Below, piece by piece: positions 31,045-49,201 of a stretch of 64,000 nt of DNA. The translations under genes were made by a program, and so were the position numbers. The stretch comes from an uncultured archaeon (lineage in GTDB: Archaea > Asgardarchaeota > Heimdallarchaeia > Heimdallarchaeales > Heimdallarchaeaceae): the NCBI GenBank assembly GCA_964534625.1, contig CAZHRF010000004.1, forward strand, positions 32,001 to 96,000, written 5' to 3'. The notes beneath the pieces were generated by a model. That model ran no database searches. It saw only the letters and a program-made list of their open reading frames with translations, and was not told the origin of the DNA. Position 1 is the first letter of the stretch. Each line of letters starts with the position of its first letter.

Positions 31045-31734
31045 CTATATTTGGGTTGATAAATAGTTCAGTATAATTGTTAGTGGCATTTCATAACTAT
31101 GAGCATCTACATTTGTTGTTTCAAAAAATACTATTTTTCTGTCTAGTACAGATGAAAGTACTATTCTTTCTGCTATATCCTTTCCCAAATATACTCCTTT
31201 TGATTTTAAATCAGCTTTATTGACAAAAACTATAACAGGAATTTCAATATTCTTTCTTTGTTCTTCAACTTGAACCATATTGACATAGTGAACAATTTTT
31301 TCCAAGCTAGAAATATTCGTTCCATCCGCCATAATAATAACTAGATTAGCTCCCTTGATGGCAATATCTTGCATGAAATCAAAACGATCTTGTCCTGCAG
31401 GATCATTAAAAATTACTTGATACGCTTCATCAATACTTTCAAGATCAATAGTTTCAAAATCACTAAATTTCTTGATGATTATTTTATTATATGTTGTTCT
31501 AACTAGAATTGAATTAATCACATTAAGCGAGATAGTTGTAGTTGAGCTGGTAAAATTTGCATATTTAAGGGGAGTAAAATCCAAGTTCGCACTGACTTCT
31601 TTAAATACTTCTCTTACAACATCATTTTTTTCAAAAGACCCAAACAAAGTTTCTAAAAATGTTGTCTTTCCACTTCCTGTTGTTCCTAGTATTGTAATCT
31701 TTTTTTTAATTAAGGGTTCTAAAGAAGAAGTCAT
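31045..31734 (-). CDS. Small GTPase, MglA/Rab-like with insertion
   Basis: G1 GTTGSGKT, G2-like STTTISLN, G3 DPAGQDRF, G4 NKAD, G5 ETTN; ATG 31734 preferred over the track start at 31791. Confidence 0.88.
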   Translation of the reverse strand: MTSSLEPLIKKKITILGTTGSGKTTFLETLFGSFEKNDVVREVFKEVSANLDFTPLKYANFTSSTTTISLNVINSILVRTTYNKIIIKKFSDFETIDLESIDEAYQVIFNDPAGQDRFDFMQDIAIKGANLVIIMADGTNISSLEKIVHYVNMVQVEEQRKNIEIPVIVFVNKADLKSKGVYLGKDIAERIVLSSVLDRKIVFFETTNVDAHSYEMPLTIILNYLSTQI

Positions 31735-31999
31735 TATAATATCTAAAAAACAGTACATACATATCATTGATAAACGTTTGTAGAAAGGCAATCATCAACT
31801 ACCACTGAAAAATAGCAAAACTAATTAATTCTTTGACGAAAATTTTGGAACTTTAATTTTTATAAAGTAGTAGTAAAATGGAAAATATTCAAATATGGTG
31901 TCTCTCAACTGTTATCATTATTCATCAAATATTCTACTTAGATTTATATTCTAAAATATCCGCTATATATTTGATGATAATCTCACAGGATGTTTATAC

Positions 32000-33940
32000 A
32001 TGAACATGAAAAACCACCCATCAGCAAAAACTATCGTTAAACAGATTCTTGATAACACTCAAAGCAAAGACCAGTTTCGTTCATATATTAAACAGTTAAA
32101 CATTAAATTAATAACAGAGTTGTATACTATAGAAATTTCTACATTTGAGAAATTAATTGATATGGCTACCACGTTTGATGATTGGAAATCTATTATCGAT
32201 TTAAAATTTTATCTTGTATTTAAATATATAAGAACAGTTGGTTTCAAGTATCCTGAAAAATTAAAATCATTAAGATTAGATATTAAAAAAGAATCAATTA
32301 AGAATGATTACAAAAAAGGATTGGCACTAAATAAATATCTCATCTGGCAATTAAGCTATTATAGTGAGGACACTCAAAAAGAAAATCAAGGAGATATTGA
32401 CGCAGTTGCGGAAGCATTGAAGATTTATGAAGAAAATAAAATAGACAAAGATGTGCATTATTATACAATTCTTTATAGTGCCATTACAGTTTTATGGTTT
32501 TTTAAAAATAAAGATTCTAAGTATTTGGAGTACCTAGAAGAGTGTCGAGAATTTTATGAAAAGATAGATGCGAGAAATAATATTATTAGAACAAACTATA
32601 TCCTTGCATTAATGTATACTTATTTAAATCTTCCAAATGATGAAACAATTCGCAGAATAAAACAAATCTTAAAAAGAAAAGATCTGGAAAAAACATCCCG
32701 TATAATTGGTTTCCATTCTCTTGCCCATCTCAAAATAATCCAACTAAATTTTAATGAAGTTGAATTCTATTGTACAAAACTTATTGAAGAAACGGAAGAT
32801 ATAACGGAAAATATTTTTGCTTCAATCTATAGCAGATTATATGGTTTGTTATATTTAAGCCAGGTTTATCTTATGAAAACAGATTTTAGTAAAACACTAA
32901 AAACGCTTAAAGAGATACAAAAGACTCTGAACGATAAACAAGTATCAAACTTTTTACCTAAAGGATTCAAAAAAAGATATATCTATATAGCACAATTAAT
33001 TTTATTTAATATCAATGATTTAATGGATAAAAACATTTCACATGTATCCAAAGAATTGTTTAGAGAAAATTTAGAAACTATTCTACAAGTAACTGGTCAC
33101 ACATGGATTACAGAAAGAATTTCGATTAAAATCTTAACCAATTACCTTTCACAGAATTATGAAGAGAATGAAATAAAAAATAAAGAAATAGAAAATAGAG
33201 AAAAATTTCAAGATAAATCAACGGAGAGAAATGAAACAAAAACTGATTCAAATGGGTGGTTATCTGATGATAAACTGCATTTACTAAAAAAACTATTGAA
33301 TGATTTAGCTTTATCACCATCGGAAAATAAATTAATTAGAGTTAGAGAAGAGATACTCTTATTAAATAAAAAAAAGATAAACAATAATGACCCTTCGCTA
33401 CATATTAATATTAATCAGATGTTGATATATGTTATAAAAACATATTTATCGCTTGGATTGTTTGATGAGTTCAAAGTTTTGTTAGAACTAATATCAGATA
33501 TAGAAAATACAAACAAAGATTTACACCAAGATTTTTGGTTATGGCTCCGAACTTTTAGATTAATCGAGGACTATTTAGAAAATACTAAAAATAGTGAAAA
33601 AATAGTTAATAAGCTAGAGAAAGTTATGAATGAAGCAGAAGAATTAGAATTATTCAAAATAAAAAATGAGATAGATATATATAAACAGCTGATCATGCAA
33701 AGAAGTGTGAGAGAAGAGTTCTCAGATGTTTTTGAACAAGAAAGATTTCTGATTCACTATTCTAAACTAGTGGAACAAAAGACAAAAGACTATTTACAAA
33801 AAAAAAAAATAGAACAAAAGCATTGCACTCTTAATGTTCTATTCTATTCTATTCTATTCTATTCTATTCTTGGTTTATTGAGAAGAAATAATAAAATACT
33901 TAATTATTCTCCTTTATATACCATTTTCATCATTTCTTAA
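32000..33940 (+). CDS. Alpha-helical (TPR-like) protein; true stop probably TAG 33810-33812
   Basis: Helical repeats with AVAEALKIYEE, YLEECREFYEK and YLSQVYL patterns; C-terminal extension follows an A12 run and reads through a microsatellite. Confidence 0.7.
   Translation: MNMKNHPSAKTIVKQILDNTQSKDQFRSYIKQLNIKLITELYTIEISTFEKLIDMATTFDDWKSIIDLKFYLVFKYIRTVGFKYPEKLKSLRLDIKKESIKNDYKKGLALNKYLIWQLSYYSEDTQKENQGDIDAVAEALKIYEENKIDKDVHYYTILYSAITVLWFFKNKDSKYLEYLEECREFYEKIDARNNIIRTNYILALMYTYLNLPNDETIRRIKQILKRKDLEKTSRIIGFHSLAHLKIIQLNFNEVEFYCTKLIEETEDITENIFASIYSRLYGLLYLSQVYLMKTDFSKTLKTLKEIQKTLNDKQVSNFLPKGFKKRYIYIAQLILFNINDLMDKNISHVSKELFRENLETILQVTGHTWITERISIKILTNYLSQNYEENEIKNKEIENREKFQDKSTERNETKTDSNGWLSDDKLHLLKKLLNDLALSPSENKLIRVREEILLLNKKKINNNDPSLHININQMLIYVIKTYLSLGLFDEFKVLLELISDIENTNKDLHQDFWLWLRTFRLIEDYLENTKNSEKIVNKLEKVMNEAEELELFKIKNEIDIYKQLIMQRSVREEFSDVFEQERFLIHYSKLVEQKTKDYLQKKKIEQKHCTLNVLFYSILFYSILGLLRRNNKILNYSPLYTIFIIS
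33837..33870. repeat. (ATTCT)n pentanucleotide microsatellite
   Basis: ttct followed by six attct units. Confidence 0.95.
33912..33920 (+). promoter_or_regulatory. Candidate TATA box for the GriC/EhpF-like gene
   Basis: ctttatata about 36 nt upstream of ATG 33956; ggtg SD at 33943. Confidence 0.45.
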
Positions 33941-33955
33941 TTGGTGACAATAGAC

Positions 33956-35110
33956 ATGGCATCAAACACTAATTCAAAACATGAAGTGAAAATTAATCCA
34001 AACAAATTTATCTCAGAGATAATAAATATAGCTATCGATCCAGAGTTGGGATCTCCTTATATGATACAACAAGCTAAAGAAAAACAAATTAAAAGAGGAG
34101 ACATTAACTCATGGAATGATTTACGAACACATTTTGATCCCGTATCACCTGATATATTTAAAGAAAAACCCACGATGTTTAACACAACTAAATGGGCACT
34201 GAAAAGAGCTCAAACTAAACCTGGCTATGAATTGATGATGGGTGAAACAGGTGGTACAACAGGAGCACCAAAAAAGACGACATTTTCTGTTAATATGCTT
34301 AAAAATATCGACGATATACTCGCTCAAGATGAATACGATATTCATACAGGAACATTTAACGCCATCCATAAAGAATTTGTATTGTTAGCAGATAAATTTG
34401 GTGTTAAAACAAATCTAAATTGGTTAGCGATGTTACCAACAGGCCCTCATCCGGTGGGAAAATGGGCTACAACATATTGGGAACCTTATTTTGCTAATTT
34501 AGTGTGGCATATAGATTTAGATCCAAGATTTATAAAAAAGGCTATGGTGGCTGATCCTAAGATTGGCGGAATGTATCTCAAACATTTACAAGACCAAGCA
34601 CAAAATCTTATCAAACAAGAGTTTCCACTAATTAACGGGATTTTTACAACCAGCATAATTATAGAAAAAATGTTCCCCATTGTTAAAAAGATGCGAGAAG
34701 AAGGTAATTTACAAGCAATTGTACACGGAGGAGCACCTATGAGTGAAGAGACTCATCGAATATTAATTGAAGACCTTAAAATACCTGTTATTGGTGTTTA
34801 TGGACAATCTTTATTTGGTGTTCTCTGGCAATCTCCTATTTTAGATGGAACGCATATTGACTATTTCCCATATAGTCGTATGAACTGTTATGTAACAGGT
34901 GATGTATCTAATCCTGCAGAAAATATTGTAGAATATGGCGAGATAGGTACAGTTGTGAGCCAACGAGTTAGTCCTGAATGCGTGATCCCTCATATGATTC
35001 AAGATGGGGATCTAGGTACCAGAATTAAACCTAAAGGATCATTTGAAAAAGATGGTGTAAGAGATCCACATAGAGAACTCAAACAAGGACAACAAATGGG
35101 GGTATACTAG
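33956..35110 (+). CDS. GriC/EhpF-like AMP-forming aryl-carboxylate ligase (LuxE/PaaK-related)
   Basis: GSPY, GETGGTTGAPK P-loop, LPTGPHPVG, IDLDPRFIKK, HGGAPM, GVYGQSLFG, VEYGEIG, DGVRDP and terminal GVY. Confidence 0.8.
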   Translation: MASNTNSKHEVKINPNKFISEIINIAIDPELGSPYMIQQAKEKQIKRGDINSWNDLRTHFDPVSPDIFKEKPTMFNTTKWALKRAQTKPGYELMMGETGGTTGAPKKTTFSVNMLKNIDDILAQDEYDIHTGTFNAIHKEFVLLADKFGVKTNLNWLAMLPTGPHPVGKWATTYWEPYFANLVWHIDLDPRFIKKAMVADPKIGGMYLKHLQDQAQNLIKQEFPLINGIFTTSIIIEKMFPIVKKMREEGNLQAIVHGGAPMSEETHRILIEDLKIPVIGVYGQSLFGVLWQSPILDGTHIDYFPYSRMNCYVTGDVSNPAENIVEYGEIGTVVSQRVSPECVIPHMIQDGDLGTRIKPKGSFEKDGVRDPHRELKQGQQMGVY

Positions 35111-35295
35111 TAATAATTCACCCTCTTTTTTCTTTAGTATATAGTTCAATCTTGTTCCATCTCTCTATTTTTCGAAAAAACCTTTTTTGTAACACTGTTT
35201 TTTGTCGGAGATTTATTCTTATTTACGTTAAAATGGCTTTCTATGAAATAACTTTAAATAATAACCTCTCTTATTTTTTATTGGTTTGAGAACTG

Positions 35296-36141
35296 ATGAC
35301 AGAAGACGAATTAACTTTCGAAGTAAAAGACTTTCCGAGCAATAGAATAGATGTATTAGCTATACATAGTCAAAAAGGCGGTCCAGGAAAAAGCACCCTT
35401 AGCTGTAATATTGCTTATGATTTAGCAGAACGAGGACATAAAACTCTTCTTGTGGATTTAGATGTAGCTCAGCCAAGTATTAATTATCTATTCAATATTG
35501 ATCAAGCTGACATAACATGCACAATAAATGATATACTATTAGGAAAAAAGTCAATGACAAGACATTCTCCTGTGAAGACCGCTCATCCTAATTTAGATAT
35601 TTTTCCAGCTGACTTAAAAGTAGATATAGGAAAAGGACTGCTCAAGCTCCTAGAATCCATTCAAAACAAATCTTTCTTCTATCTACACCAATTAATTAGC
35701 AAAGCACTCAAGATTGGTTACAGATTTTTAATTTTCGATTGTGCCCCTGGTTATAAACTCGAATCGGTTACAGCAGCAGGTCTTAGCGATACCCGTCTTT
35801 TTGTTATTAAACCTTCCACTTTTTCTTTTGGGGGGGCGAAAGAAATGTTGAAAACCATCTATACAAGCTTAGATGTGGACGCTACAACATTTTTTTTGTT
35901 TAATCAAGTACCTCCGAATCTTGATGAAAAAGAGACAAACTTGCTCTTGGGATGGGTAGATGAATTAAAGAGCAATTATAAAGGTAGATTGGAATTTTTG
36001 GGAAATTTCCCTCTAGATTTTGGCATAATAAAAAATGGCATTGTTGGTAAATATATTATCTCTAAAGATTCTGGTGTCTATCCATTATTAAAATCGATAG
36101 TTGACCGTATTATTCAAGACCTAGATGAGAGAAAAAAATAA
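35296..36141 (+). CDS. MinD/ParA-family ATPase
   Basis: Deviant Walker A HSQKGGPGKST, LLVDLD, IFDCAPG, FNQVP. Confidence 0.9.
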   Translation: MTEDELTFEVKDFPSNRIDVLAIHSQKGGPGKSTLSCNIAYDLAERGHKTLLVDLDVAQPSINYLFNIDQADITCTINDILLGKKSMTRHSPVKTAHPNLDIFPADLKVDIGKGLLKLLESIQNKSFFYLHQLISKALKIGYRFLIFDCAPGYKLESVTAAGLSDTRLFVIKPSTFSFGGAKEMLKTIYTSLDVDATTFFLFNQVPPNLDEKETNLLLGWVDELKSNYKGRLEFLGNFPLDFGIIKNGIVGKYIISKDSGVYPLLKSIVDRIIQDLDERKK

Positions 36142-36319
36142 GATTTTCTCATCTCACTGATCCGAACTCCATATTCTAAATTAGTACAACAGCAGACAAA
36201 AATGCATATTTGATGTGTGTATATTATCATTGAATTATTGTTGACAACAAATTTATTGGAACTTTCTTTTAATAATATGCATAAAAAAAACATTTATTTG
36301 AGACACATCCTCAATCACT

Positions 36320-36934
36320 GTGAATAAAAAAAAAGGTCAAATTATGAATAACACTCCTCTCTCATTAAGTTATTTAACAATTATTCAATCTACTGGTGTA
36401 CCATTGTATAGTAGTTCCTTTAATTTTATTGATGATGAAAACTGTAGGAACTTTAATGGAAGATTGGAACTCACTAATCATAATCTGCTTTTTGGTGGAA
36501 TATTTTCTGCCATTTGTAATTTAAGTGCAGAAATAATGAAGGATGAATTAGAGAATATTAATATTCATCTGTCTTCTTATGATCTTTTCTGCTTAACAAA
36601 AAATAATCTTTTGTTTATAGGTGTTTTCGAAAGGGTAAGCAATCAGGGAAATGATCAAGAAATTAGTAAAATAATACTTGATACTATGTCTACTATAGCA
36701 AAGTGTTTCTTTAAGACTTACCCACAAGAAGAAATTATGCAAAACGATTTCACAATTAATCGATTTAACGGATTTAATGAACATCTCACGAAAATGAACC
36801 TTTCTATTTCAAATTGTAGAAATTGCCTAAAAAAGTGTTCAGATAAGTTTCAATGCTGTATACCCCATCAAATTTATTTTGAGAAAACCCTAAATAAAGA
36901 TAAAAACACAAATAAAGAAGAAAGTGAAAAGTGA
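36320..36934 (+). CDS. Longin-like domain protein with Cys-rich C-terminal motif
   Basis: LTIIQSTGVPLYS and LFGGIFSAICNLSAEIM pattern typical of Asgard longin-like domains; CRNCLKKCSDKFQCCIPH tail. Start probably ATG 36344. Confidence 0.6.
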   Translation: MNKKKGQIMNNTPLSLSYLTIIQSTGVPLYSSSFNFIDDENCRNFNGRLELTNHNLLFGGIFSAICNLSAEIMKDELENINIHLSSYDLFCLTKNNLLFIGVFERVSNQGNDQEISKIILDTMSTIAKCFFKTYPQEEIMQNDFTINRFNGFNEHLTKMNLSISNCRNCLKKCSDKFQCCIPHQIYFEKTLNKDKNTNKEESEK

Positions 36935-37016
36935 ATAATCAGCACTATAGTTTCACATATGCATTCAAAATCTACATATTTTATTAATTGTGTTTAAAGA
37001 TAGACTAATCTATTAC

Positions 37017-37253
37017 TTAAGAACAAATTGCTCTTGAACTTATGTATACGTTATCATAACCTAATGCGCGTACAACTTTTAATAGCTTCCTTGAATTGGT
37101 AATAGTATCATCTAAAACGAGTGTGGCTTTTTTTTCTTTTTCATTGATTTCTGATTTCTGAACGCCAGCTAAATATTTGAAAGTTACTTTTAATGTATGG
37201 TACTCTGTCTCGTTTTCAAGTGTATCAATATTTAGTTCGACTTCTTCTGTCAT
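37017..37253 (-). CDS. HMA-fold (CopZ-like) protein lacking the CxxC motif
   Basis: LAGVQKSEINEKEKKATLVLD...LLKVVRALGY matches the HMA pattern; ENETE replaces CxxC. Confidence 0.6.
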   Translation of the reverse strand: MTEEVELNIDTLENETEYHTLKVTFKYLAGVQKSEINEKEKKATLVLDDTITNSRKLLKVVRALGYDNVYISSRAICS

Positions 37254-37500
37254 CCTTTTCACTTCTTTCTAAGTAGCTTTATATACTTCACCTATTTAAA
37301 TCTCACTAATGCTCCACTTTTAAAACGCATTCTTATGTTGTTTGTAAAGCATCATCATGAAATAAATTTTTTTTTTAACCAAATAAGAACTATTTAGTTC
37401 TCATGAAATTAAAGTAAAAAGTGAAAGATAGTAAAAATAGAGAGACAAAGTTTAAATGTTTATTAGTAATTTTGTTGAATTTTTTCTTATTCACAACATA

Positions 37501-37668
37501 TTAGTCGTCATAAGGTTCAAATTCTTCTTTGCCAACACCACATTCGGGACAGATCCAATCATCTGGTAAATCTTCGAATGTTGTTCCAGGTTCGACGCCT
37601 GCAGCTGGATCACCTAGCTCTGGGTCGTATATATATCCACACATAGTACAAATCCATTTTCCACTCAT
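37501..37668 (-). CDS. Rubredoxin (55 aa, not in ORF track)
   Basis: [55 protein letters not shown]; aaggtg SD. Confidence 0.97.
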
Positions 37669-37872
37669 ATTTTACACCTTAGTTAAATTTCTGCAATTTT
37701 AAAAGAAAATAATCCTTATTAAAACTTTCTTATTTAACTATTAATTAACAGACAATTTAACAATAGTAAAAGTGGAGATACTGTTGGGTGGAAAGGGAGT
37801 ATGTATTCATAATACTTTTAAGTACAAGCTATTGTACCTACTAAATCAAATGTTCGAAGTTTAGTATTACAT

Positions 37873-38370
37873 TTGATATTTGAGATGAAAAAGATGGCAA
37901 ATAAAGTTACAAAAGATAGCATTGTTAAAGTGCATTATATAGGAACATTTCCTAAAACTGATGATATTTTCGATACTAGTAGAAAAGAAATAGCCAAAGA
38001 TAAGGGAATCTATACGGAAAAAAGAGATTATGCCCCGTTAGAAGTAAAAATGGGCGAGAAACAAGTAATTGTAGGATTTGAAAATGCTTTATTAGATATG
38101 AAGGAAGGAGAACGAAAAAAAGTTACTATACCCCCAGAGCAAGCGTATGGTCAACCAACTGAACAAAGAATTGTTGACGTTCCATCTACGAATTTTGATC
38201 AAGCTGACGTTAAACCAGAAAAAGGGATGTTAATTCAAACGCAACAAGGTATAGCTGCAATAGTTGATATTGATGAAGATCAGCAAACAATTAAACTTGA
38301 TTTTAATCATCCTTTAGCCGGTAAAACATTAGAATTCGATCTTGAAGTAGTTGAGGTCAAACAAGAATAA
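37873..38370 (+). CDS. FKBP-type peptidyl-prolyl isomerase (SlyD-like short archaeal FKBP)
   Basis: VKVHYIG, FDTS, GFENAL, IPPEQAYG, LDFNHPLAGKTLEF. Confidence 0.95.
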   Translation: MIFEMKKMANKVTKDSIVKVHYIGTFPKTDDIFDTSRKEIAKDKGIYTEKRDYAPLEVKMGEKQVIVGFENALLDMKEGERKKVTIPPEQAYGQPTEQRIVDVPSTNFDQADVKPEKGMLIQTQQGIAAIVDIDEDQQTIKLDFNHPLAGKTLEFDLEVVEVKQE

Positions 38371-38389
38371 GATTGAAATCTACACCGAC

Positions 38390-39178
38390 TTAAATATACC
38401 ATAAAACGTCTACTATTTCACTTCTCTGTTCTTTTTTTGTATATATGTATAACAAATCTTTAGCAATTAGGGCATCAATATGTTTGTAAATTTCTTTTTG
38501 TGGAAGTGTCAAAGTATTTTTTAGCATATTGATTGAAACTCCTCCAAGTCTATGATACTTAAGCACCATTAACAGCATTTCTCGTTTAACATCATCTAAT
38601 GATAATAATTTCTGTATTTCGAAATATTCTGGAACTAGATATTCTAAGACCATTTTTTCTATTTTTCTTGCAAGTATTTCAAATATGCGTTTATAAGAAT
38701 CGAGATGATGCTCACAGCTATCAAACCATGTAATAAATCGCTCCAATAAAACAATTAATTCTTCGTTCATTTGTAAATATTGCAGAAATATCTCATCTTT
38801 TACAAGTATGAAAATAATAGTGGGGACGAGGTTAATACCTGTATCAAAAACCATCCCGATAGGGATTGCTTTATGGCCATTTATTTGTAGTGGATTGTCA
38901 AAAAAATTGAATCTGTTAGAAGAATCTGCAAAACTATCAACAAATAATTGACAACCTTCAATATTTACCCAACGAGCAAGAGAGAGTTCAGCTAAGGGAT
39001 CATTATGAAACGTATAAAATGGTGCAAAATCTGAGGATGGAGTTATTTTCATATAAACAAAAAGATTGAATTTTATTGAAGAATCAGAGAAAGCAAAATG
39101 AATTTCTTCATCTGTTTCTGTATGTATATCATGTTCAAAATTTAAAGGATCTCTTTTTTTCTGTTCGTTTTTCATCAT
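38390..39178 (-). CDS. Hypothetical protein with C-terminal winged HTH
   Basis: GVSINMLKNTLTLPQKEIYKHIDALIAKDLL wHTH; 7 bp downstream of the XPD-like gene. Confidence 0.6.
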   Translation of the reverse strand: MMKNEQKKRDPLNFEHDIHTETDEEIHFAFSDSSIKFNLFVYMKITPSSDFAPFYTFHNDPLAELSLARWVNIEGCQLFVDSFADSSNRFNFFDNPLQINGHKAIPIGMVFDTGINLVPTIIFILVKDEIFLQYLQMNEELIVLLERFITWFDSCEHHLDSYKRIFEILARKIEKMVLEYLVPEYFEIQKLLSLDDVKREMLLMVLKYHRLGGVSINMLKNTLTLPQKEIYKHIDALIAKDLLYIYTKKEQRSEIVDVLWYI

Positions 39179-39185
39179 TTTTCGC

Positions 39186-40976
39186 TCACTTATTTAAGAA
39201 TAGGTGTATAGATTTTGCCATCATTTTTGCGTTATAATAGCGTTGGAAATGAAAATCTTTATTGAACCGGGTTCCACGAGGATCTAACAAAACATGAACA
39301 GCTTTATCATTTCCAGATCGTATGGCTCTTCCAAAAGATTGAGCTAAACGTTGAGCTGTTGGAATTGAAATGGTAAAATCTCTGGCTAATTTACTACCGA
39401 ATTTTTGTTTCAATTCATCAAAAATAAACTCTTTTTCGATACTAGGCGGAGGATAGGGTAGAGTACAAACAACAACAGCTTCAATCAGACTCTTACCATT
39501 AGACGTAAATTCGATTCCCTCACTAATTTTGCCCCCTATAACACACCCTACAAGTTTATGTGAAGAATTGAGAAGAATAGTTTTGAAAAAACTAATATCG
39601 ATTTTTGGTTCTTCAACAATATCAAAATCAACCTTAGTCAAGGTCTGTAAATTATGTAAATAATTATAGCTACTAGCAAAAACCAGCATATGACCAGGAA
39701 CAGCTTGATGAATGGTTCGAATAGCTTTGCAAATATCAATATAATAAGTCTCTGTTCTATTTAGATACTTTCCCATGAAACGCTTGTTCATAAGTATATA
39801 GGCACGACTTTGTTCCTCATCTTTAGAAGGAAAAATCCTTAAACAGTTTGAATGAGGGAGAGCATAGAGTTTTTGAAAAGCAGTGACAGGTTCAAAAGAT
39901 CCTGACATTAAAATAATCCTTGCTGCCCCCCATATTTTTGACAATACATCAGAAGGGAGAGGATTCACTAGAGTAAGTTTTTTGGTATCACTAATCACTG
40001 TTTTACCTTGAGCTTGAAGAAGGAAATAATAAGCCAAATAAGCATTAACCTTAGGTATAGTATCAGAGCTGATGTGAGATTTAATTTGAGGGAGCAAAAT
40101 AGACCCTAGATCCTTTAGTTCTTGAGAGAGAATAGCCAATTCTACTAGTTGTTCATCTTTTCCTATATTTAGCAATGTTTGAAATGAATTATGCGGTAGT
40201 TCAGTATTGGCTTTTTTGACTATATTTAGGCTGATTTCGGGATTCAATGGGGCATATAAGTTATGTGCTTCATCAATAGCAATAAGTAGATCACTAAGAT
40301 CACAACCAAGTCGGTATAGAAACGTTTTAAACAGAATTAAATTCTCCAAGAACGGATAAGAGGCTATTAAAATATCTGCTTTTGAAACTAATATATGACT
40401 AAAAAAATAAGGACATAAATTTCCATCAGTAAAAAAATTATAGATATCGTCAGGAACAAGCATATTAGGAAAGATTTGAAAACAATTCTGGATAAGCACC
40501 CGTATCTGATTATCTTCTAACCGTTTAGTTTTGTTTTTAAGAGGACAACTAGTGAATTCACATATGTGGCTGTAAATTTCGCTGGGCAAAGAATTTCTTT
40601 TTTTAAGACAAAGCTCGTTTTTTCCTAAAACGGGGAGAATAAACGGAAAATGCTCAAAATGCTCCTCCACTTGTTTCCAATTTTTTAAAACCTGTCTATA
40701 AATAAGTGCTAATTCTCTTAAAAAAACATTTATTTGTGCTTTTGTTCTCACAAAAATAACAATTTTCTGGTGAGGTTTTTTAAGCGCCATGAGTGAGGTT
40801 AATAAAGCAGCTGATTTTCCCACACCGGTCTTAGTAGAGAAAAACAATGTTTGATTTGATGTTAAGACTTCCTGAATAAACTGTTTTTGTGTTAGTTTTA
40901 TTCTTGGATATGGCCAAATATATTTAATTGTGTTTAAACGATCTTGAGCGATAATTGAACCCTTTAGTGTTTTCAT
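39186..40976 (-). CDS. XPD/Rad3/DinG-family Fe-S helicase
   Basis: TKTGVGKS, FVRTKAQ, four Fe-S Cys (ELC, HIC, SCP, LCPYF), IDEAHNL, MSGS, GGKISEGIEF, QSFGRAIR. Confidence 0.9.
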   Translation of the reverse strand: MKTLKGSIIAQDRLNTIKYIWPYPRIKLTQKQFIQEVLTSNQTLFFSTKTGVGKSAALLTSLMALKKPHQKIVIFVRTKAQINVFLRELALIYRQVLKNWKQVEEHFEHFPFILPVLGKNELCLKKRNSLPSEIYSHICEFTSCPLKNKTKRLEDNQIRVLIQNCFQIFPNMLVPDDIYNFFTDGNLCPYFFSHILVSKADILIASYPFLENLILFKTFLYRLGCDLSDLLIAIDEAHNLYAPLNPEISLNIVKKANTELPHNSFQTLLNIGKDEQLVELAILSQELKDLGSILLPQIKSHISSDTIPKVNAYLAYYFLLQAQGKTVISDTKKLTLVNPLPSDVLSKIWGAARIILMSGSFEPVTAFQKLYALPHSNCLRIFPSKDEEQSRAYILMNKRFMGKYLNRTETYYIDICKAIRTIHQAVPGHMLVFASSYNYLHNLQTLTKVDFDIVEEPKIDISFFKTILLNSSHKLVGCVIGGKISEGIEFTSNGKSLIEAVVVCTLPYPPPSIEKEFIFDELKQKFGSKLARDFTISIPTAQRLAQSFGRAIRSGNDKAVHVLLDPRGTRFNKDFHFQRYYNAKMMAKSIHLFLNK

Positions 40977-41233
40977 GAATTTGCCATATCCTTTCTATTC
41001 CGTCAAAATAATAATGAGTGGATTTATTTTTAAGGGAGAGAAAATACTTAGGTAATACATTTTAAAGTAATATTGCTTTATAAAGTGGTATAATAGGGAA
41101 TTATCAAACTCAATTCCAACCCCTCCTAGATAGAAAAAATAAAAACTCTTTTCCTAAATTAAGAGAAAATAAAAAAACAAAAAAGTGCGGATGAAATTTA
41201 GTCAAATATAACAAAAAAAGAGTGAAAAAAAGA

Positions 41234-44200
41234 TTAAATTCTTCTTTTGAACTTCTTTCTAATAATAACCAAAGTAGCAAAAGAACACGACATGATCAGA
41301 GTTAACCATAACGAAGATACTCCTCCTTTATCTGTTAATTCACTAGCTAATTCTGGGTCCCAACTGATTACAATGTGATGAATGCTATGTTCGTATTCAA
41401 AGTATAAAGCTATGTTAGTTTCATTTGAAGAAGAAATGTAATCTATTTCCGATCCATCTATTTCAACAACAAAAGAGTCGGTGGGAACATTGAAAATACC
41501 ATCCCTTGGAACAGTAAAATTGCAAAAACCAGTGGTACCTGACGCACCAGAAACATAAAATTCTACATGGTCATCAGCATAGTCGAAATTAGATAGATGG
41601 GACGGTGTCTCAATTTGGACATTATAGACTTGATCACCGATATTAAGTGTTTCTTGTTGCAAAAGAGGGTAACTAAGGTCATTAAGAGGATCAGACCCAA
41701 AAGAAAGTTCTTGTCCATCGTTATAACCATCGCCATCAGTATCGTCTAAAGTACAAAGTGTATGATTCAAAATATGCTCAAAGTTACCATAACTTGTAAT
41801 AGAATCATCTTGTAAAGACATACTATAACCAGGTACAACGGTATTTATTTCATACCAATCAGATAGGCCATCACTGTCGTAATCAGTCTGTTTACCATCT
41901 AAAACACCGTCAGAATCTTGATCAGAAATAAAAGGATGAGTACCAACTGGATACCAACTCCAACGAACATTATGATAATCAAAAACCTCTAATCGATCAA
42001 AGATACCATCATTATCACTATCGAAATCTAAGATGTTGGGTAAGTTGTCAGAATCAGCATCACCCATAGGGCCATAATTAGGGTTTCCAGTCTCAAATTC
42101 GAGTTGTTCATATATAAGTACTTCTTCAAAGTCATTCAAGCCATCTCCATCCGTATCTTTATTCAAGGGGTCAAGAGTGAGAATTTTACCAGTACTAGGA
42201 TCAGTAGTTCGATAAACAAAAAACTCTGTATAGTCGTCCAAACCATCTCCATCTGTGTCATTTGAGAGAGGATTAAAACCATTTATTGTTTCAATATAAT
42301 CATTGATACCATCACCATCTGTATCAAACGCTAATGGATCTGTATATCGCTTATATTCATCAGTAGCATTCAAGGAAAGGTCTAAACCATCTTCGAGTGT
42401 TATATTGTCATATGTATGACTGAAATAGGAAACAGGCATCTTGAGTTCTTGCCAGTCATCTAGACCATCTCCATCCGTATCTTGACTAAGCATATCGGTA
42501 CCATTAAGAAATTCTTCTAGATCGTCTAGACCATCTCCATCATAATCTAAATAATGCCAAATATCAGCTACGTTTCTCCAACTTTTACCTTCACGTCCAG
42601 TAATATAGTCAATCTCATCAAAATCTAGCCAATCATCTCCATCTGTATCAGCGGTTACAGGAGAGAGAACCATTAATTTTTCAAGACCATCAATTAAACC
42701 ATCCGAATCGGTGTCAGCTTCCATAGGATGTGTTTGGAATCTAGACCGATAAGGATCAGGTGCGTCGTGAAAGATAACTAAAAGAGCAGTATCGCCTTCA
42801 GGTAAATATGGTTCATTGATCACAGTTAAACCAGGATCAACAGTGCGATTAAGGGCCCAATTCCATCCATAATATTCTTCACCATCAGTGAGCATATCAT
42901 CATCACTGTCAGGATCATTAGGGTCAGTTTCGTAAATCACTTCACCTATGTTCTGAATATATAGCGATTGAGGAACAATCTCGAAATCGTCGGATAAACC
43001 ATCATTATCTGTATCTTGCCGTCGCGGGTCAGTATTATAAACATGAACCTCAAGCCCATCTAAAATAGAATCGCCATCAGAATCTGGAAGCAATGGATTT
43101 GTGCCCATTTCGATTTCATCTCCATCTCTAAGCCCATCTCCATCCGTATCATTGTTTAATGGGTCTGTACCTATTAGCAACTCTTGACCATCTTTCAATC
43201 CATCATTATCAATATCATCATTAGTTAAATAACAACCTTCTGCAATGGTTTCATTGCTTATTAGTCTCGTGACATTGAAATAATACCATTCTTCTCCATC
43301 TAGTAATCCGTCATCGTCTGAATCTGGATCACCACAATCTGTTCCAAAGTCAGAATACTCTTGCTGATCAGGTAAGCCATCTCCATCAGAATCTCCCTCT
43401 ATGGGTATGGTACCAGCTTTCCATTCCTCAACATCACTTATACCATCATTGTCAGTATCTGCTTTTAGTGGATTCGTTGGTGTAGGATTGGGCGGAGGAC
43501 AATCAGTAAGCCCCCAAGGATGATCTTGCCAAGTATTACCCATAATCTCGCCATAATCAGTAAAATCGCCTATTCCAGCTTCAGAGTGATTTGCATTTTC
43601 TAATTCTGAAGGATCAATGATACCGTTTCCATTTAAATCAAAATCGCCATCTGTATCAATATCAGTAGGATCAGTTCGATACATACGCTCTTGCCCATCA
43701 TCCAAGCCATCTCCATCAGAATCTTGAGTTAATATATTAGTTACTGGAAAAGGTATGCCATACTCATTTTTGAAATATTCCCACTCTTGGAAATCATTTA
43801 AACCATCTTCATCACTATCCCATTTTCTAGGATCTGGATGGTCTGATTCATATGCTTGACCAGCTATTTCCCATTCTTCCAAATCAGTAAAACCATCATA
43901 ATCGGTATCTATTTGGGAAGGATTGGTTTTTATTACTTCGTTCCAGTAGGCACTATAGAACCCTTTTATTTCAAACTTATCGTCAAGTCCGTCATTATCA
44001 CTATCTGGATCCATAATACAAGGTAGACCGTCTTTGTCATAATCAGCTAAGGGATCTAATCCCATCATGTAAAACAATGCAATTTCTTCTCCATCTAGTA
44101 ATCCGTCGCCATCCGTGTCATTCTTCTTCGGATCAGTAAAGAAATTTTTTAGTTCTGAACCGTCTGAGAGCCCATCATTATCCGTGTCTGGATTAGTAGG

Positions 44201-45976
44201 ATCTAATCCCATTCTAATTTCTTGTAGATCATTAATTCCATCTCCATCCAGATCTAGTAACGTGTTATTATTTTCAGGTGGAGCACTGCCTGTTCCAGGT
44301 ATTTTAGGTAAGGTAAAAAGAATGTCATCATCCCATTTTTTCGTTGTTGAGAACTTAAATACCCAAAAAATAGAAGCCCAGAATTTAAACAGGAACTTAT
44401 AGAATAAACCTACTTGAAAAACCAATCCTAAATGACTAAAACTCGTTTTAACTACAACACCTGCAATAGCTTTTAGCTTGGCACCCAATTTGATTATATC
44501 AACAGGAACACTAATACCTATCGCATCTTTGATCATCTTTTTCGGGCTTGGCAGTTTAAATTCAATATCTAGTCCAAAGCCAGCTTTCAGAGTTACATCT
44601 TGGACAGATGCATCAGTTGTACTATTATAGTTGAGTCCAAAAGCAAATGATAAGAAATTTACAAGATTAAGTTTGATATTCAGAAGTTTCAACACTGTTC
44701 CAATAGCTTGACCTGTACCAGGTATAACATAATCTAAGAATTTTGAAATAGGTATACCAAATTCAAAGTCAAGTTTGATTGAAAAAGCTCCCGCTAGAAA
44801 CGAAAAAGGGTTAGCTGTCACATCCGCACTTGCATTTTCCATAGCATCTATATAATTTCCTAAACGAATTGTCCCAGATAATTTAGGTGATAGATCTAAT
44901 TTTATTTCATATCCCGACGCAGCGATAATTTCTTTTAAACCGGGTACATTTGTTAAATCCAGTTTTCCTCCTTTAGGGGCTATACTCATGGATATATCAA
45001 CATATTCTGGCATGTACCACGGTCCTGAACCTACTCTAGGGTCAATAGTAATATCAAGAGGGATATCAAAGGGAAATTCTCCAGTAGCTGAATTTCCCTC
45101 TCCCATATCTTTTAATTCAACACTACCCCCACCTTTTGAACCACTATTGATTTTGGCATCATCAAATATTAAAGTATCCGGATTTCCACCTGAGCCTGAT
45201 GTTTTTGAATACCATTGGTCACTTGCATCATTAAGATTGCCTAGCATTAATAAAGTTGTGATAAGTTCTACTAGCCAACCATAGGATCCTCTAACACGAG
45301 TATTGACTTCACTAAATTCTATTTCAGTTAAAGGTTCAATAGGCATCATGCTTCTTTTTAATATGTTATCTAAATTCACAACAAAATATTCAGCGAGTAC
45401 AGCCAGAATATTATTATGTAATTGCCTAACTTTGGTGTCATACTGTGTTAAATCGTGAAGTTTACATAATGTGTGAAGTAAGGCAAGGTGAGAATCAACA
45501 TCATTTTTTAGTCCAAAAATGCTTTTTCCTTGAACAAGGGTTTCTAAAATGGATGAATAACATACTTCAAAAATATGATTTTCCACCGAAGACTGCTCAA
45601 TAAGACTAGTAATAACAGACCACTTGATTAAATCTTGATTGATTAGAAGACCAGCGGGTTTTCCATGGAAAACATAAATATTGAGCCATGAATCCTCCTC
45701 AGAGGTTTTTAATTCATTAATAGAACCAATTTTATGTAATCGGGGATTCAAACCCGTTTTTAAAAGTGTAAGAAAGAGTTGATTTGCAGCTTTTGAAGTA
45801 ATTCTATTGCTACTATCATAAAAAATAACCACTGATTGTTCATTCGTGGAATTTGCACCTAAACTTTTTCTAAAATAATCTTTTTGGTCAAACCCCATAT
45901 ACAAACTCTTAAGCGGAATACTTCCAGTAAATAAGAGTATAAAAAATACTGACAAAATTTTTTTTCTAATTGTCAT
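41234..45976 (-). CDS. Large surface protein with thrombospondin type-3-like Ca-binding repeats
   Basis: Signal peptide; dozens of DxDxDGLxDxxE...TDP repeats; C-terminal VSGASGTTGFCNFTVP domain; TM + KKFKRR. Confidence 0.9.
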   Translation of the reverse strand: MTIRKKILSVFFILLFTGSIPLKSLYMGFDQKDYFRKSLGANSTNEQSVVIFYDSSNRITSKAANQLFLTLLKTGLNPRLHKIGSINELKTSEEDSWLNIYVFHGKPAGLLINQDLIKWSVITSLIEQSSVENHIFEVCYSSILETLVQGKSIFGLKNDVDSHLALLHTLCKLHDLTQYDTKVRQLHNNILAVLAEYFVVNLDNILKRSMMPIEPLTEIEFSEVNTRVRGSYGWLVELITTLLMLGNLNDASDQWYSKTSGSGGNPDTLIFDDAKINSGSKGGGSVELKDMGEGNSATGEFPFDIPLDITIDPRVGSGPWYMPEYVDISMSIAPKGGKLDLTNVPGLKEIIAASGYEIKLDLSPKLSGTIRLGNYIDAMENASADVTANPFSFLAGAFSIKLDFEFGIPISKFLDYVIPGTGQAIGTVLKLLNIKLNLVNFLSFAFGLNYNSTTDASVQDVTLKAGFGLDIEFKLPSPKKMIKDAIGISVPVDIIKLGAKLKAIAGVVVKTSFSHLGLVFQVGLFYKFLFKFWASIFWVFKFSTTKKWDDDILFTLPKIPGTGSAPPENNNTLLDLDGDGINDLQEIRMGLDPTNPDTDNDGLSDGSELKNFFTDPKKNDTDGDGLLDGEEIALFYMMGLDPLADYDKDGLPCIMDPDSDNDGLDDKFEIKGFYSAYWNEVIKTNPSQIDTDYDGFTDLEEWEIAGQAYESDHPDPRKWDSDEDGLNDFQEWEYFKNEYGIPFPVTNILTQDSDGDGLDDGQERMYRTDPTDIDTDGDFDLNGNGIIDPSELENANHSEAGIGDFTDYGEIMGNTWQDHPWGLTDCPPPNPTPTNPLKADTDNDGISDVEEWKAGTIPIEGDSDGDGLPDQQEYSDFGTDCGDPDSDDDGLLDGEEWYYFNVTRLISNETIAEGCYLTNDDIDNDGLKDGQELLIGTDPLNNDTDGDGLRDGDEIEMGTNPLLPDSDGDSILDGLEVHVYNTDPRRQDTDNDGLSDDFEIVPQSLYIQNIGEVIYETDPNDPDSDDDMLTDGEEYYGWNWALNRTVDPGLTVINEPYLPEGDTALLVIFHDAPDPYRSRFQTHPMEADTDSDGLIDGLEKLMVLSPVTADTDGDDWLDFDEIDYITGREGKSWRNVADIWHYLDYDGDGLDDLEEFLNGTDMLSQDTDGDGLDDWQELKMPVSYFSHTYDNITLEDGLDLSLNATDEYKRYTDPLAFDTDGDGINDYIETINGFNPLSNDTDGDGLDDYTEFFVYRTTDPSTGKILTLDPLNKDTDGDGLNDFEEVLIYEQLEFETGNPNYGPMGDADSDNLPNILDFDSDNDGIFDRLEVFDYHNVRWSWYPVGTHPFISDQDSDGVLDGKQTDYDSDGLSDWYEINTVVPGYSMSLQDDSITSYGNFEHILNHTLCTLDDTDGDGYNDGQELSFGSDPLNDLSYPLLQQETLNIGDQVYNVQIETPSHLSNFDYADDHVEFYVSGASGTTGFCNFTVPRDGIFNVPTDSFVVEIDGSEIDYISSSNETNIALYFEYEHSIHHIVISWDPELASELTDKGGVSSLWLTLIMSCSFATLVIIRKKFKRRI

Positions 45977-46210
45977 AACTCAATGTTTACTATTTATTTT
46001 TAAGTATTAAAATGTTATTCACCATATTGAGTGATTGTTCACTAAACCAACATCTTTTATGTCAAATGAAACAAAGAAAGATTCTTAATTTTATGTTATA
46101 AAAAACAAATAGCTAAATAAGGAAAGAAATTGAAACAGTACTAGCTTACTGTGGTGGCTTTAGCACATTTCTCAGCTGGTTGTTGAAATAAAAATACTTT
46201 AGTATGGTAT

Positions 46211-46450
46211 TTGTATGAATTATTTAAGATTATACCTGATTCGAGATCGTTTCTTGCTTCTTCAAACCGGAGCGATTGGAGCGGTACAGGATCATATCTT
46301 ATCGATGGTTTCGCTGAATCAGAAGACATATATCCCTTAAATAACAAATATGGAAATGAAAATAGTACACGTGTTATTTGTTCATTATTTTATGTTACCT
46401 TAATCAGTGGGTTTGCTTTCATCTTGTACAAAAGTAAAAAGAAAAATTAG
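46211..46450 (+). pseudogene. C-terminal remnant of a NosD/beta-helix-type surface protein
   Basis: SDWSGTGSYLIDGFAESEDIYPL resembles the NxWSDW...YxIDG...DxYPL end motif, followed by TM + KSKKKN; no upstream body. Confidence 0.5.
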
Positions 46451-46482
46451 TTGGATCATAGAAAAAACAAGCCCTTATCCTC

Positions 46483-47943
46483 CTAAGGGCGGATATTTGT
46501 GGCTTTTGTTTGATATAAGAAATCGCCTAAGAACCCTTCATGAGGGGCAGCTATATCGTGTGTAAAGGTTATTTCATTTAAGAAAACTTTTTGTATTGTA
46601 GGTTCCACCAATAATTTCTTTGCTTTTTCAACTCTATCAGTTAGATAGGCAACAGATAAGGAGTTACTTGCTGCTTCATGCACCAAGCTATCTTCTGGTT
46701 GAATGATAGTACCAAAAGGCCAAGGATATTCGTCGGTTACCATTTTGTGATCCTCAGGCATTTCTAAAAGAGTGGGAAGGAAATAAGTTAAGTTATTTTT
46801 CTCTATCATCCAGTTAATATCACCTCTGCACTTGGCTGTTAGATCTAAGACATTATAATCCATGCGTGATTCTACATAAGAATGTAATTTTTTTGCAGTT
46901 TCTTTTTTCATTGCGGGTAAGACAGCTCTTGGATCAAGTATATTTAAAGGTTTAATTTTTGCTAATTGTTCAGCTAATCTAGTTTTAAATTCATCATAGC
47001 GTTCATTACCCATGAATATAATACCAGAAGCATTGATACATCCTCTGCCGCCGTCTATAGTAATAGAATTATATGCAACATCAAGAGCCATATCCATGTG
47101 AAACTCGCTCATCTGATCAAAATCGATAACAACTTTAGATTGACCAGGACCATACGCTTTAATTGAATTATTGTCGCCATATTGTTTAAGCGTCCAATCA
47201 CTTCCAAAGATAATTCCTAGGTCTGATTGTCTGACAATAGTATCAACTGCGCTATGATCTGTAACAAAGTGGAATAGCGTTTCATATGGTAATCCAGCTT
47301 GCCACAAAGATTTACAGAGTTTATAACTGGTAAAAGGCTCTTGGCTAGACGCACGAATAATAGTAGGAACTTTCATAAGAGGACTCAATACACCCATCAG
47401 ACTAACAGCTGGATGATTACTAGGCAATGCTACTCCCACATTGCGACCTCTTGGGCTCCAACCAAATACTGTCCCGCGTATACCTATATTTTCGTCATAA
47501 ATATCTAACTCACCTGTTGGAGAGTTTGCTTTTAGAAAGCGTATTAAATGCTCTTTACTCAGAAACTCTTTAATCATTTCAAAGGTGTTCCGTACATATG
47601 TTATCGGCATACCAGTAGACAAAGTAATCAGCTCCGTCCATTCATTGTTGCTTAGATATAGTCCTTTGATTTCTAAATCTTTTGCGAAAATTTTCCCTGC
47701 TTCAGCGTAAATTGTAATTAATTCTTCAATACTCATCTCTTGTAGTTTGTTAAAACCAGCCAGTTTATTCATAGGCATAGCCATTTGAACATGTATATCA
47801 GAAGAGACGCTTATATCTAACAATTTTTGCCCTTGTATAGATTCAAGAGCCTTAGTTGATCTTGAAATATATTCTTCACCATTGCGCAAAATTGGTAAAT
47901 TGAGATTTTTTGTTATTGCCATGTCTGTTTTCACCAAATTCAA
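46483..47943 (-). CDS. GriD/LuxC-like aldehyde-dehydrogenase-fold acyl reductase
   Basis: GVALPSNHPAVS, RASSQEPFT, IFGS, YGPGQSKVVI, catalytic Cys in GGRGCINASG, EYPWPF, APHEGFL. Start probably ATG 47922. Confidence 0.8.
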   Translation of the reverse strand: MNLVKTDMAITKNLNLPILRNGEEYISRSTKALESIQGQKLLDISVSSDIHVQMAMPMNKLAGFNKLQEMSIEELITIYAEAGKIFAKDLEIKGLYLSNNEWTELITLSTGMPITYVRNTFEMIKEFLSKEHLIRFLKANSPTGELDIYDENIGIRGTVFGWSPRGRNVGVALPSNHPAVSLMGVLSPLMKVPTIIRASSQEPFTSYKLCKSLWQAGLPYETLFHFVTDHSAVDTIVRQSDLGIIFGSDWTLKQYGDNNSIKAYGPGQSKVVIDFDQMSEFHMDMALDVAYNSITIDGGRGCINASGIIFMGNERYDEFKTRLAEQLAKIKPLNILDPRAVLPAMKKETAKKLHSYVESRMDYNVLDLTAKCRGDINWMIEKNNLTYFLPTLLEMPEDHKMVTDEYPWPFGTIIQPEDSLVHEAASNSLSVAYLTDRVEKAKKLLVEPTIQKVFLNEITFTHDIAAPHEGFLGDFLYQTKATNIRP

Positions 47944-48158
47944 TTTCTTGTCATGTCTACTAGTAAAATATTGAAATTCATTTATAAACTAGGTAAAACC
48001 CTCGTATCAAGAAAGCTGTAGAAAGGATTGAATTTAAACATAATTCAGATATACTTTCAGGTATTCTAACAAAATCATTTGAAAAACTGGTATGTATTTA
48101 CATTTCTATTGACATAAAGAAAAACAATAAATACTCGTATAATATAATAATATTTGTT

Positions 48159-49100
48159 GTGAATGATATGTCGATGGATAAAGAAGCAATTCCCGTAACT
48201 ATTGTAGGTTTGGAAAATGCAGGTAAAACCACACTCATTGAACGCCTTAAACATGATGAATTTGTTGAAGATACAACTCCCACAATTGGTGTCAGTTTTG
48301 AAATTTTCGATGTTGATAACACACGTTTCAAAATCTTCGATTTAGGTGGGCAATTAGTTTTCAGGGAGCAATTTTGGATTAAATATGCTAGTTACTCATA
48401 TGGAATTATATTTGTTTTTGACGCTGCTGATCGCCAAAAACTTGCTGATGCTAAAAAATGGTATTGGAAGCTTATAAATGAACTTGAAGTGGAAGATAGA
48501 ATAGCTATTGCATTCTTAGCTAACAAAGCTGATTTAGATGGGTGTATGAGCCTTCAAGAGATTATAGACGAATTGGAATTAACCAAAATGAGTGAGTCCC
48601 CATCTATTAGTTTTCAAATATTTAAAACAAGTAATAAAACCGCTGAAAACATTCAACAGTTTATGCAATGGTTTGAGCGTAAAATAGATAGTATTTCTAG
48701 CTCTAGATCAACTTCTCCTAAAGGCTTGATTCTTTCTACCATCTACGGTAGAATCCAGTTAGTCTTAGATTTCTCTGATTTATCTGATCAGATAGGCTTA
48801 GTACGTGAATTATTAATGAACCTTTATTCAGAGCAGAAAGATATTTTAAAGACTTTTAAGTTAACTTCAATGATTTATAAAGATGTTAAATTAGTGTGCA
48901 ATGAAAAAGCCGATATGATTCTCTCTTTAATCACACACCCTACCGATTCAGATGTGGAAACTCAACGTTATATTGACATCATTTATGCATTTATTAGCGA
49001 AAAAAAAGCCCAAACAAAAGATGAACTAACCACATTCATTTTCGATCTGTTCAATGTTCCAGAAAATAAACGAAAAGAGATTAATGGATTAAGTTTCTAA
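48159..49100 (+). CDS. Arf-family small GTPase fused to a C-terminal longin/roadblock-like domain
   Basis: GLENAGKTT, PTIG, FDLGGQ, FVFDAAD, LANKADL, FKTS; extra ~130-aa C-terminal domain. Confidence 0.9.
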   Translation: MNDMSMDKEAIPVTIVGLENAGKTTLIERLKHDEFVEDTTPTIGVSFEIFDVDNTRFKIFDLGGQLVFREQFWIKYASYSYGIIFVFDAADRQKLADAKKWYWKLINELEVEDRIAIAFLANKADLDGCMSLQEIIDELELTKMSESPSISFQIFKTSNKTAENIQQFMQWFERKIDSISSSRSTSPKGLILSTIYGRIQLVLDFSDLSDQIGLVRELLMNLYSEQKDILKTFKLTSMIYKDVKLVCNEKADMILSLITHPTDSDVETQRYIDIIYAFISEKKAQTKDELTTFIFDLFNVPENKRKEINGLSF

Positions 49101-49201
49101 ATTATCTTTACAATATACTTTGATACCAAACAACCACAAAGAGTATATGCAAAAAAGGTAAAGGAGAGATTCAAATAAGTTAAAGTGACCAATTTATTTG
49201 T

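Follow-up and report, generated by a model that had tools for sequence, protein, structure and literature searches.

We analyzed a window of 64,000 nucleotides (nt) from an uncultured archaeon of the Heimdallarchaeaceae (assembly GCA_964534625.1, contig CAZHRF010000004.1, positions 32,001 to 96,000), and all positions below are those of this whole stretch. The window encodes an EhpF/GriC-type adenylating enzyme, referred to here as the ligase, and a GriD/EhpG-type acyl reductase with an aldehyde dehydrogenase (ALDH) fold, referred to here as the reductase. Our data indicate that the two probably act together as a two-component, GriC/GriD-type (EhpF/EhpG-type) carboxylic acid reductase, whose operon was split while its halves remained co-regulated, whose neighbouring GTPases are incidental, and which possibly serves a FIST module in trans. 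The genes lie 11.4 kb apart on opposite strands and do not form one operon in this genome. The features that define the pair are as follows.

33900..33925, forward strand: ligase promoter motif, a pyrimidine/C-rich block plus TATA box TTTATATA (33913-33920), 36 nt before the ATG
33956..35110, forward strand: predicted EhpF/GriC-type adenylating enzyme, 384 amino acids, ANL N-terminal domain only
46483..47922, reverse strand: predicted GriD/EhpG-type ALDH-fold acyl reductase, 479 amino acids, ATG at 47922 within open reading frame (ORF) 46483-47943
47976..48001, reverse strand: reductase promoter motif, the same motif, with TATA box TTTATAAA (47988-47981)

The original prediction, made from the letters of this stretch, had placed the ligase in the EhpF/GriC type by three motifs, all of which we found in the 384-residue protein (GETGGTTGAPK at residue 96, TGPHPVG at 162 and IDLDPRFIKK at 186). 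The assignment holds, since EhpF is the best match in the PDB by sequence and by fold. EhpF was the sole significant PDB sequence match (phmmer, E 1.4e-15), and an AlphaFold model of the ligase (predicted local distance difference test, pLDDT, 89) returned EhpF chains as its top five Foldseek matches (E 1e-21 to 1e-23, template modeling (TM) score 0.71-0.75), with PaaK-like ligases ranking below them (E of at least 7e-14, TM score about 0.6). Chain lengths are 345-352 residues for EhpF, 384 for this ligase and 420-436 for PaaK-like enzymes. The C-terminal domain of ANL enzymes serves coenzyme A (CoA) transfer; the ligase ends 32 residues past the A7 aspartate, D352, and is without this CoA/thioester-forming subdomain. 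It carries a family-specific insertion of approximately 20 residues after its P-loop, and no cysteine is conserved across the ligase family that could be a candidate acyl carrier. Pfam gives it only a weak, generic AMP-binding label, and neither the ligase nor the reductase passes any family cut-off in NCBIfam. The ligase has no Pfam LuxE match and no C-terminal acyl-cysteine, and LuxE proteins reach at most 18 bits on the EhpF profile. Database names of its homologues include "phenazine antibiotic biosynthesis protein" and "ThnN". In four homologues (P0156, P0169, P0198 and P0236), EhpF-type domains are fused to a class III aminotransferase, a zinc alcohol dehydrogenase, an alpha/beta hydrolase or SCP2, and such fusions are consistent with next steps that would consume an aldehyde.

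The motifs quoted for the reductase were likewise all present in the 479-residue protein (LPSNHPAV at residue 166, SSQEPFT at 192, GPGQSK at 258 and GGRGCINAS at 291). Pfam matches it to Aldedh (4.7e-14) and to LuxC (8.5e-12, over the LuxC cut-off), and its predicted structure is an ALDH fold. Asn169 and Cys295 are invariant in 17 of 17 aligned homologues. At the site of the ALDH1A1 general base (LELGG) the reductase has YGPG, so that the general-base glutamate is absent; by established ALDH chemistry, this suggests an acylating or reducing enzyme. The predicted family is thus borne out: an ALDH fold with the catalytic cysteine and asparagine and without the hydrolytic glutamate.

We searched 400 Asgard genomes with ligase and reductase profiles (G and L labels denote the genomes and loci compared; G000 is this genome and G004 is Ca. 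Heimdallarchaeum aukensis PM71). The ligase was found in 26 genomes, the reductase in 25 and both in 23, 21 of which belong to the host family, Heimdallarchaeaceae. Outside this family only G128 and G397 carry the pair, each with both genes, and the genomes with one enzyme only are incomplete or misbinned. The sole other out-of-family reductase match (G048, family f6) sits on a contig that over 9.4 kb matches one of G016 (family f1, the host family) at 99.6% identity, and is probably misbinned. Where both genes share a contig they are 3-21 kb apart (G001, G002, G004, G007 and G009), while in a close relative (L081) they are adjacent with a 26-bp gap. Adjacency recurs in L227, L086, L185, L224, L226 and G397, and of 72 more distant loci, most of them bacterial, a six-frame search counted 36 with the two genes adjacent. 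The same clades come out of the maximum-likelihood trees for either protein, with Heimdallarchaeaceae monophyletic in both (100/100). Co-occurrence, adjacency elsewhere and congruent trees make the pairing well supported, and with it the functional link between the enzymes. The Asgard origin that the original prediction had proposed is supported as well, and close homologues of both proteins carry the names Heimdallarchaeaceae or Heimdallarchaeota. A co-fold of ligase and reductase passed only weakly, with 0.33 against 0.00 for the best control, contact agreement of at least 68% and pLDDT of at least 84; 58 of 80 solved pairs reached this mark, as did 2 of 110 mismatched ones, but 7 of the 80 and both mismatches did so with no more than 0.60.

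Two further arrangements were seen in this survey. A cluster of biosynthetic appearance, approximately 19 kb long, in the Asgard genome G128 (contig C117; L138:5412-15733 and L139) holds two EhpF-type ligases, two GriD-type reductases, three U32 proteins, B12 radical SAM enzymes, DUF362 and DUF2284. In anammox Brocadiaceae (L152 and L154), an EhpF-type ligase with no reductase nearby has a large membrane transporter-like gene upstream and, downstream, genes for a U32 protein and an aminotransferase-like product.

Both genes of the pair are preceded by the same promoter motif, which across the host family takes the form of a T-rich and then a C-rich block immediately 5' of the TATA box. Their start regions are near-identical in this genome (TTGGTGA..AGACATGGCA), and in G004 25 nt are identical before ligase and reductase. 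With a promoter matrix trained on relatives only, this genome being left out, the reductase ranked 4 and the ligase 10 among 2650 genes. The likeness of ligase and reductase promoters was 15.1/20 within a genome compared to 12.9/20 between genomes (13 genomes; 0 of 5000 permutations; kinship uncorrected), and the L081 operon, held out of training, carries the motif at its head (22.7 bits). From these matching promoters we infer that the two genes are likely co-expressed. We rejected the motif as a general Heimdall promoter: TATA-bearing genes and tRNAs are A-rich at this position, and only 9 of 473 reach at least 4 bits on the upstream block. Elsewhere in the window, genes 49202-51247 (a 681-amino-acid surface protein) and 62484-63140 (a 218-amino-acid membrane protein) rank 3rd and 6th for the motif.

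Family chemistry and the active-site residues point to the following mechanism. The ligase would convert R-COOH and ATP to acyl-AMP, the acid being small and probably aromatic or heterocyclic, as the likeness to EhpF suggests. Since the ligase has no CoA-transfer domain, the acyl group would be handed to Cys295 of its ALDH-fold partner, from which hydride of NAD(P)H would release R-CHO. An ancestral operon would have been broken in most Heimdallarchaeaceae, with each half retaining a copy of the same promoter, and the two would thereby stay co-expressed. It is speculative that FIST takes the acid or aldehyde as its ligand, or that the pair and helicases share one stress regulon.

The FIST connection comes from other archaea. 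A KaiC-roadblock-FIST module adjoins the pair in five other archaeal lineages. The gene order is KaiC, helix-turn-helix-FIST, ligase, reductase in L086; FIST, ligase, reductase in L185 (Aenigmatarchaeota); and V4R-type, FIST, ligase, reductase, KaiC in L224 and L226. In the Asgard genome G397 and in L087, FIST, a roadblock-sized gene and KaiC are divergent from longin, ligase and reductase. Heimdallarchaeaceae themselves have a related operon.

L142:5586-9138 (G000 C1:35585-39137): host-family operon of KaiC, roadblock, FIST, a Rab-like GTPase and a small CxxC protein, in 5 of 5 family members examined

The FIST of this operon is sister to the pair-linked FIST of G397 (Shimodaira-Hasegawa-like support 97, FastTree). 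In 12 other Asgard genomes LuxE comes after a related FIST gene, with LuxC confirmed alongside in five of them, and LuxE was found in 0 of 31 host-family genomes. Two unrelated acid-to-aldehyde pairs thus take the same place beside FIST. The Lokiarchaeia-type genomes with FIST, then LuxE and LuxC, also have roadblock-like and gelsolin genes there (L248:846-5465; L249:2750-9271; L250; L252; L253). Asgard family f5 holds a reordered version of the KaiC-roadblock-FIST operon, with a transporter. FIST was rejected as an exclusive phyletic partner of the pair, being found in 94 of the 400 genomes.

We consider the FIST module the likeliest context of the pair, which would act in trans by making or removing a molecule sensed by FIST; this is a possibility that falls somewhat short of even. 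It is a better lead to the pair's purpose than the GTPases of the window, and through it the suggestion of small-molecule signalling in the original prediction survives, while the route proposed there, through those GTPases, does not. A broader model is doubtful: an archaeal signalling system in which a carboxylate reductase pair (EhpF/GriD in Heimdallarchaeaceae and some archaea, LuxE/LuxC in Lokiarchaeia) would set an acid/aldehyde ligand read by KaiC/roadblock-coupled FIST. In Heimdallarchaeaceae its output would be the Rab-like GTPase of the operon (G000 C1:35.6-39.1 kb), and the split enzymes would act in trans from a promoter shared with Hef/FANCM-like and XPD helicases.

Several observations weigh against a carboxylate reductase pair that serves FIST. 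With full flanks, 15 of 72 distant ligase loci have no reductase nearby, so EhpF-type ligases can work otherwise, and identity to the characterised bacterial enzymes is only about 25%. The FIST operon never adjoins the pair in Heimdallarchaeaceae and lies Mb apart from it in closed genomes. It does not clearly carry the motif of the pair (it ranks 526 in this genome and scores 5-12 bits in relatives), and the FIST tree comes from a quick run of FastTree. In family f5 the FIST operon occurs in 22 of 22 genomes, and neither enzyme pair was found in them.

The pair might instead be a single orphaned step in a biosynthetic or catabolic pathway whose other genes are scattered. It would then turn an aryl acid into the aldehyde needed for a cofactor, a lipid or a secondary metabolite and play no role in signalling, which we regard as unlikely. 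The bacterial homologues are biosynthetic (PMC10179220, PMC3175449), the duplicated pairs of G128 are clustered with U32 and B12 radical SAM enzymes, and other homologues are fused to the aminotransferase or alcohol dehydrogenase domains noted above. Set against this, no biosynthetic enzyme is conserved as a neighbour in about 20 family members, and the nearest archaeal homologues stand repeatedly beside FIST/KaiC. No secondary-metabolite cluster surrounds either enzyme gene in the window, as the original prediction had said.

The promoter motif is shared with helicase genes, which raises the idea of a stress or DNA-damage regulon in which the pair would be induced alongside Hef/FANCM-like and XPD helicases and would make a reactive aldehyde from which the cell shields its DNA, or handle a toxic acid or aldehyde. 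The helicase genes are the following.

39186..40976, reverse strand: XPD/Rad3-family helicase, with the same promoter motif (rank 11)
L143:5082-6710 (G000 C4:97081-98709); L051:10917-14487; L081:2819-4522: Hef/FANCM-like helicase, usually in an operon with XPD

No neighbour of the reductase is conserved more often than XPD with its Hef-like partner: in 8 of 19 relatives and here they are found within 8 kb of the reductase gene, and in L081 ligase, reductase and the Hef-like gene form one run behind the motif. The motif also stands before the Hef/FANCM-like and XPD operon in relatives (5 of 6 other genes with at least 14 bits among 379), and in this genome the promoter of the Hef-like gene ranks 26 and that of a RadA paralogue 35. 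The Hef-like protein matches Pyrococcus Hef (4e-14) and FANCM (1e-12), but its Walker motifs are degenerate. Moreover, the other top-ranked genes for the motif are mostly membrane or secreted proteins, and other RadA-like genes rank 394-2404. The linkage may be inherited gene order, and no such context occurs outside Heimdallarchaeaceae. A role of this kind would be compatible with the reductase chemistry, and we consider it distinctly unlikely.

The original prediction had wired the pair to its neighbours: an aldehyde or acyl signal made for the GTPases at 31045 and 48159, or acylation of them, with the TPR, MinD and longin proteins as partners. The neighbours are real, and both GTPases are intact.

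31045..31791, reverse strand: small GTPase (Ras 4e-10; G1, G3 and G4 intact)
32000..33940, forward strand: helical, TPR-like protein, TPR only via weak orthology to a TPR_12 protein
35296..36141, forward strand: MinD/ParA-family ATPase
36320..36934, forward strand: longin-like protein with a Cys-rich tail (Atlas lead 0.88-0.89; matched by a hidden Markov model (HMM) of Arf C-terminal domains)
48159..49100, forward strand: Arf-family GTPase with a longin-like C-terminal domain, divergent from the reductase, one of nine such paralogues in the genome

Atlas matches of the Arf C-terminal domain are 0.81 or less and roadblock-like, and serve as leads only. Of the layout described in the original prediction, in which each half adjoins a GTPase, one side stands: the Arf-longin gene adjoins the reductase, and the ligase lies 2.1 kb from its GTPase. 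The divergent promoter that the original prediction has the reductase share with the Arf-longin gene comes down to a common intergenic region of 236 bp, and the motif found in it faces the reductase alone. A small GTPase lies within 500 bp of only 3-4% of genes in this genome, and within 2.5 kb of 8-9%, which speaks for a connection. So do the TPR-like and MinD genes found near the ligase in a second genus, and the longin gene that precedes the ligase in G397.

To examine linkage we screened 40 loci of relatives with a GTPase HMM, covering 20 genomes for the ligase and 19 for the reductase, some of the flanks being truncated. No intact small GTPase was found in them; the one ORF that matched, in G009, is without a P-loop and is orthologous to neither of the window GTPases. 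Two closed genomes place the orthologue of the 31045 GTPase approximately 230-240 kb away from the ligase, and that of the Arf gene 1.8-2.0 Mb away from the reductase. With the window protein as query, five relatives yielded no longin-like gene. The proposed synteny with GTPase and longin genes across Asgard genomes is therefore contradicted, and synteny with TPR and MinD is kept only in part: apart from this genome, only the genus Heimdallarchaeum has orthologues of both close to the ligase, which reads as residual gene order. Of the outcomes that the original prediction named as refuting it, the lack of linkage to these GTPases and the longin gene is thus observed, whereas the enzymes do co-occur and do not group with ordinary PaaK and ALDH. 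The promoter matrix separates these neighbours from the pair (GTPases 272 and 2351, TPR 1840, MinD 1242 and longin 2470 of 2650), and the genome holds 44-58 small-GTPase-like ORFs and nine Arf-longin paralogues. Acylation fares no better. The window GTPases have neither Gly2 nor a C-terminal cysteine as acceptor sites, the ligase has no conserved acyl-carrier cysteine, and a Heimdall Arf that was tested binds membranes without myristoylation (PMC11914678). Gene order across relatives shows the flanking GTPases and the longin gene to be incidental neighbours in a shuffled, GTPase-rich genome, and the placement of each half beside a GTPase is a coincidence of this genome. The wiring to GTPases is thus largely refuted by synteny and seems very improbable.

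The order of ligase, reductase and Arf gene is no assembly artefact, since contigs from two sequencing runs (Logan assemblies) each cover 33880-49300 in one piece, although these runs may be the assembly's own source. A (TATTC)6 microsatellite at 33829-33879, in the tail of the TPR-like ORF and approximately 30 nt before the ligase promoter, breaks 4 of 4 Logan assemblies, so the joint between the TPR-like gene and the ligase is without independent bridging, and the unit number and the TPR C-terminus may vary. The last approximately 40 codons of the TPR-like ORF run through this repeat and the ligase promoter. One further (TATTC)n array occurs in the genome, also on C4. The region between the two enzyme genes (41115-46269) is a variable cassette: a minority contig of run X1 omits the gene of a 1580-amino-acid TSP3-repeat surface protein there and has approximately 1.4 kb of other DNA.

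That the two are housekeeping enzymes with no relation to each other, one a CoA ligase of the PaaK type and the other an ordinary ALDH, as generic Pfam labels (weak AMP-binding, Aldedh) and 11 kb between the genes might suggest, is hardly credible and is ruled out by co-occurrence and trees, together with the missing PaaK C-terminal domain and general-base glutamate, the adjacency elsewhere and the shared promoter.

Our data indicate that Heimdallarchaeaceae carry, throughout the family and in single copy, an enzyme type known from bacterial gene clusters for antibiotics and pigments. After the operon broke up the two halves apparently stayed co-regulated, and a concrete motif for their promoters is now available. 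If the FIST link is true, a single sensor module of archaea would have recruited two unrelated acid-to-aldehyde pairs; this module ends in a Rab-like GTPase in lineages that stand close to eukaryotes, which would give an Asgard GTPase a ligand input. The pair and its FIST and helicase connections are real and are undescribed in the literature searched: searches on EhpF/GriC/GriD, ThnN/ThnO and KaiC with FIST returned no archaeal pair, and no paper there ties KaiC hubs to carboxylate reductases.

Among known systems, the ligase shares its fold and length class with EhpF of the EhpF/EhpG system from the D-alanylgriseoluteic acid cluster of Pantoea (Enterobacter) agglomerans (EhpF PDB 3hgu, 3hgv and 3l2k). 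Both ligases have ETGGTTG, PTGPH and DLDPR and no ANL C-terminal domain, and both systems have an ALDH-fold partner. They differ in that identity is about 22-24%, the insertion of approximately 20 residues is present here, no phenazine genes lie nearby and the genes are split. The mechanism of EhpF/EhpG is reportedly that given by Bera and colleagues in 2010. In grixazone biosynthesis of Streptomyces griseus, GriC/GriD comprise an AMP-forming enzyme and a separate reductase, predicted to convert an acid via acyl-AMP to an aldehyde (PMC10179220). The pair is like them in this composition, by description rather than by direct alignment to S. griseus GriC and GriD. Unlike them, it has no griH/griI-type cluster around it and is archaeal, single-copy and family-wide, so that the bacterial features of an operon and a secondary-metabolite cluster are absent here.

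LuxE/LuxC fatty acid reductase has the same overall chemistry, and our reductase passes the LuxC cut-off in Pfam whereas the ligase is not LuxE. In Lokiarchaeia-type genomes LuxE/LuxC hold the FIST-adjacent place that EhpF/GriD hold elsewhere. Archaeal KaiC-like ATPases are signalling hubs according to a passage of PMC5847659 that cites Makarova, Galperin and Koonin 2017. In other archaea the pair is flanked by KaiC-roadblock-FIST genes; in the host family such genes make up a conserved operon with a Rab-like GTPase, and there, unlike in those archaea, the link to the pair would be in trans.

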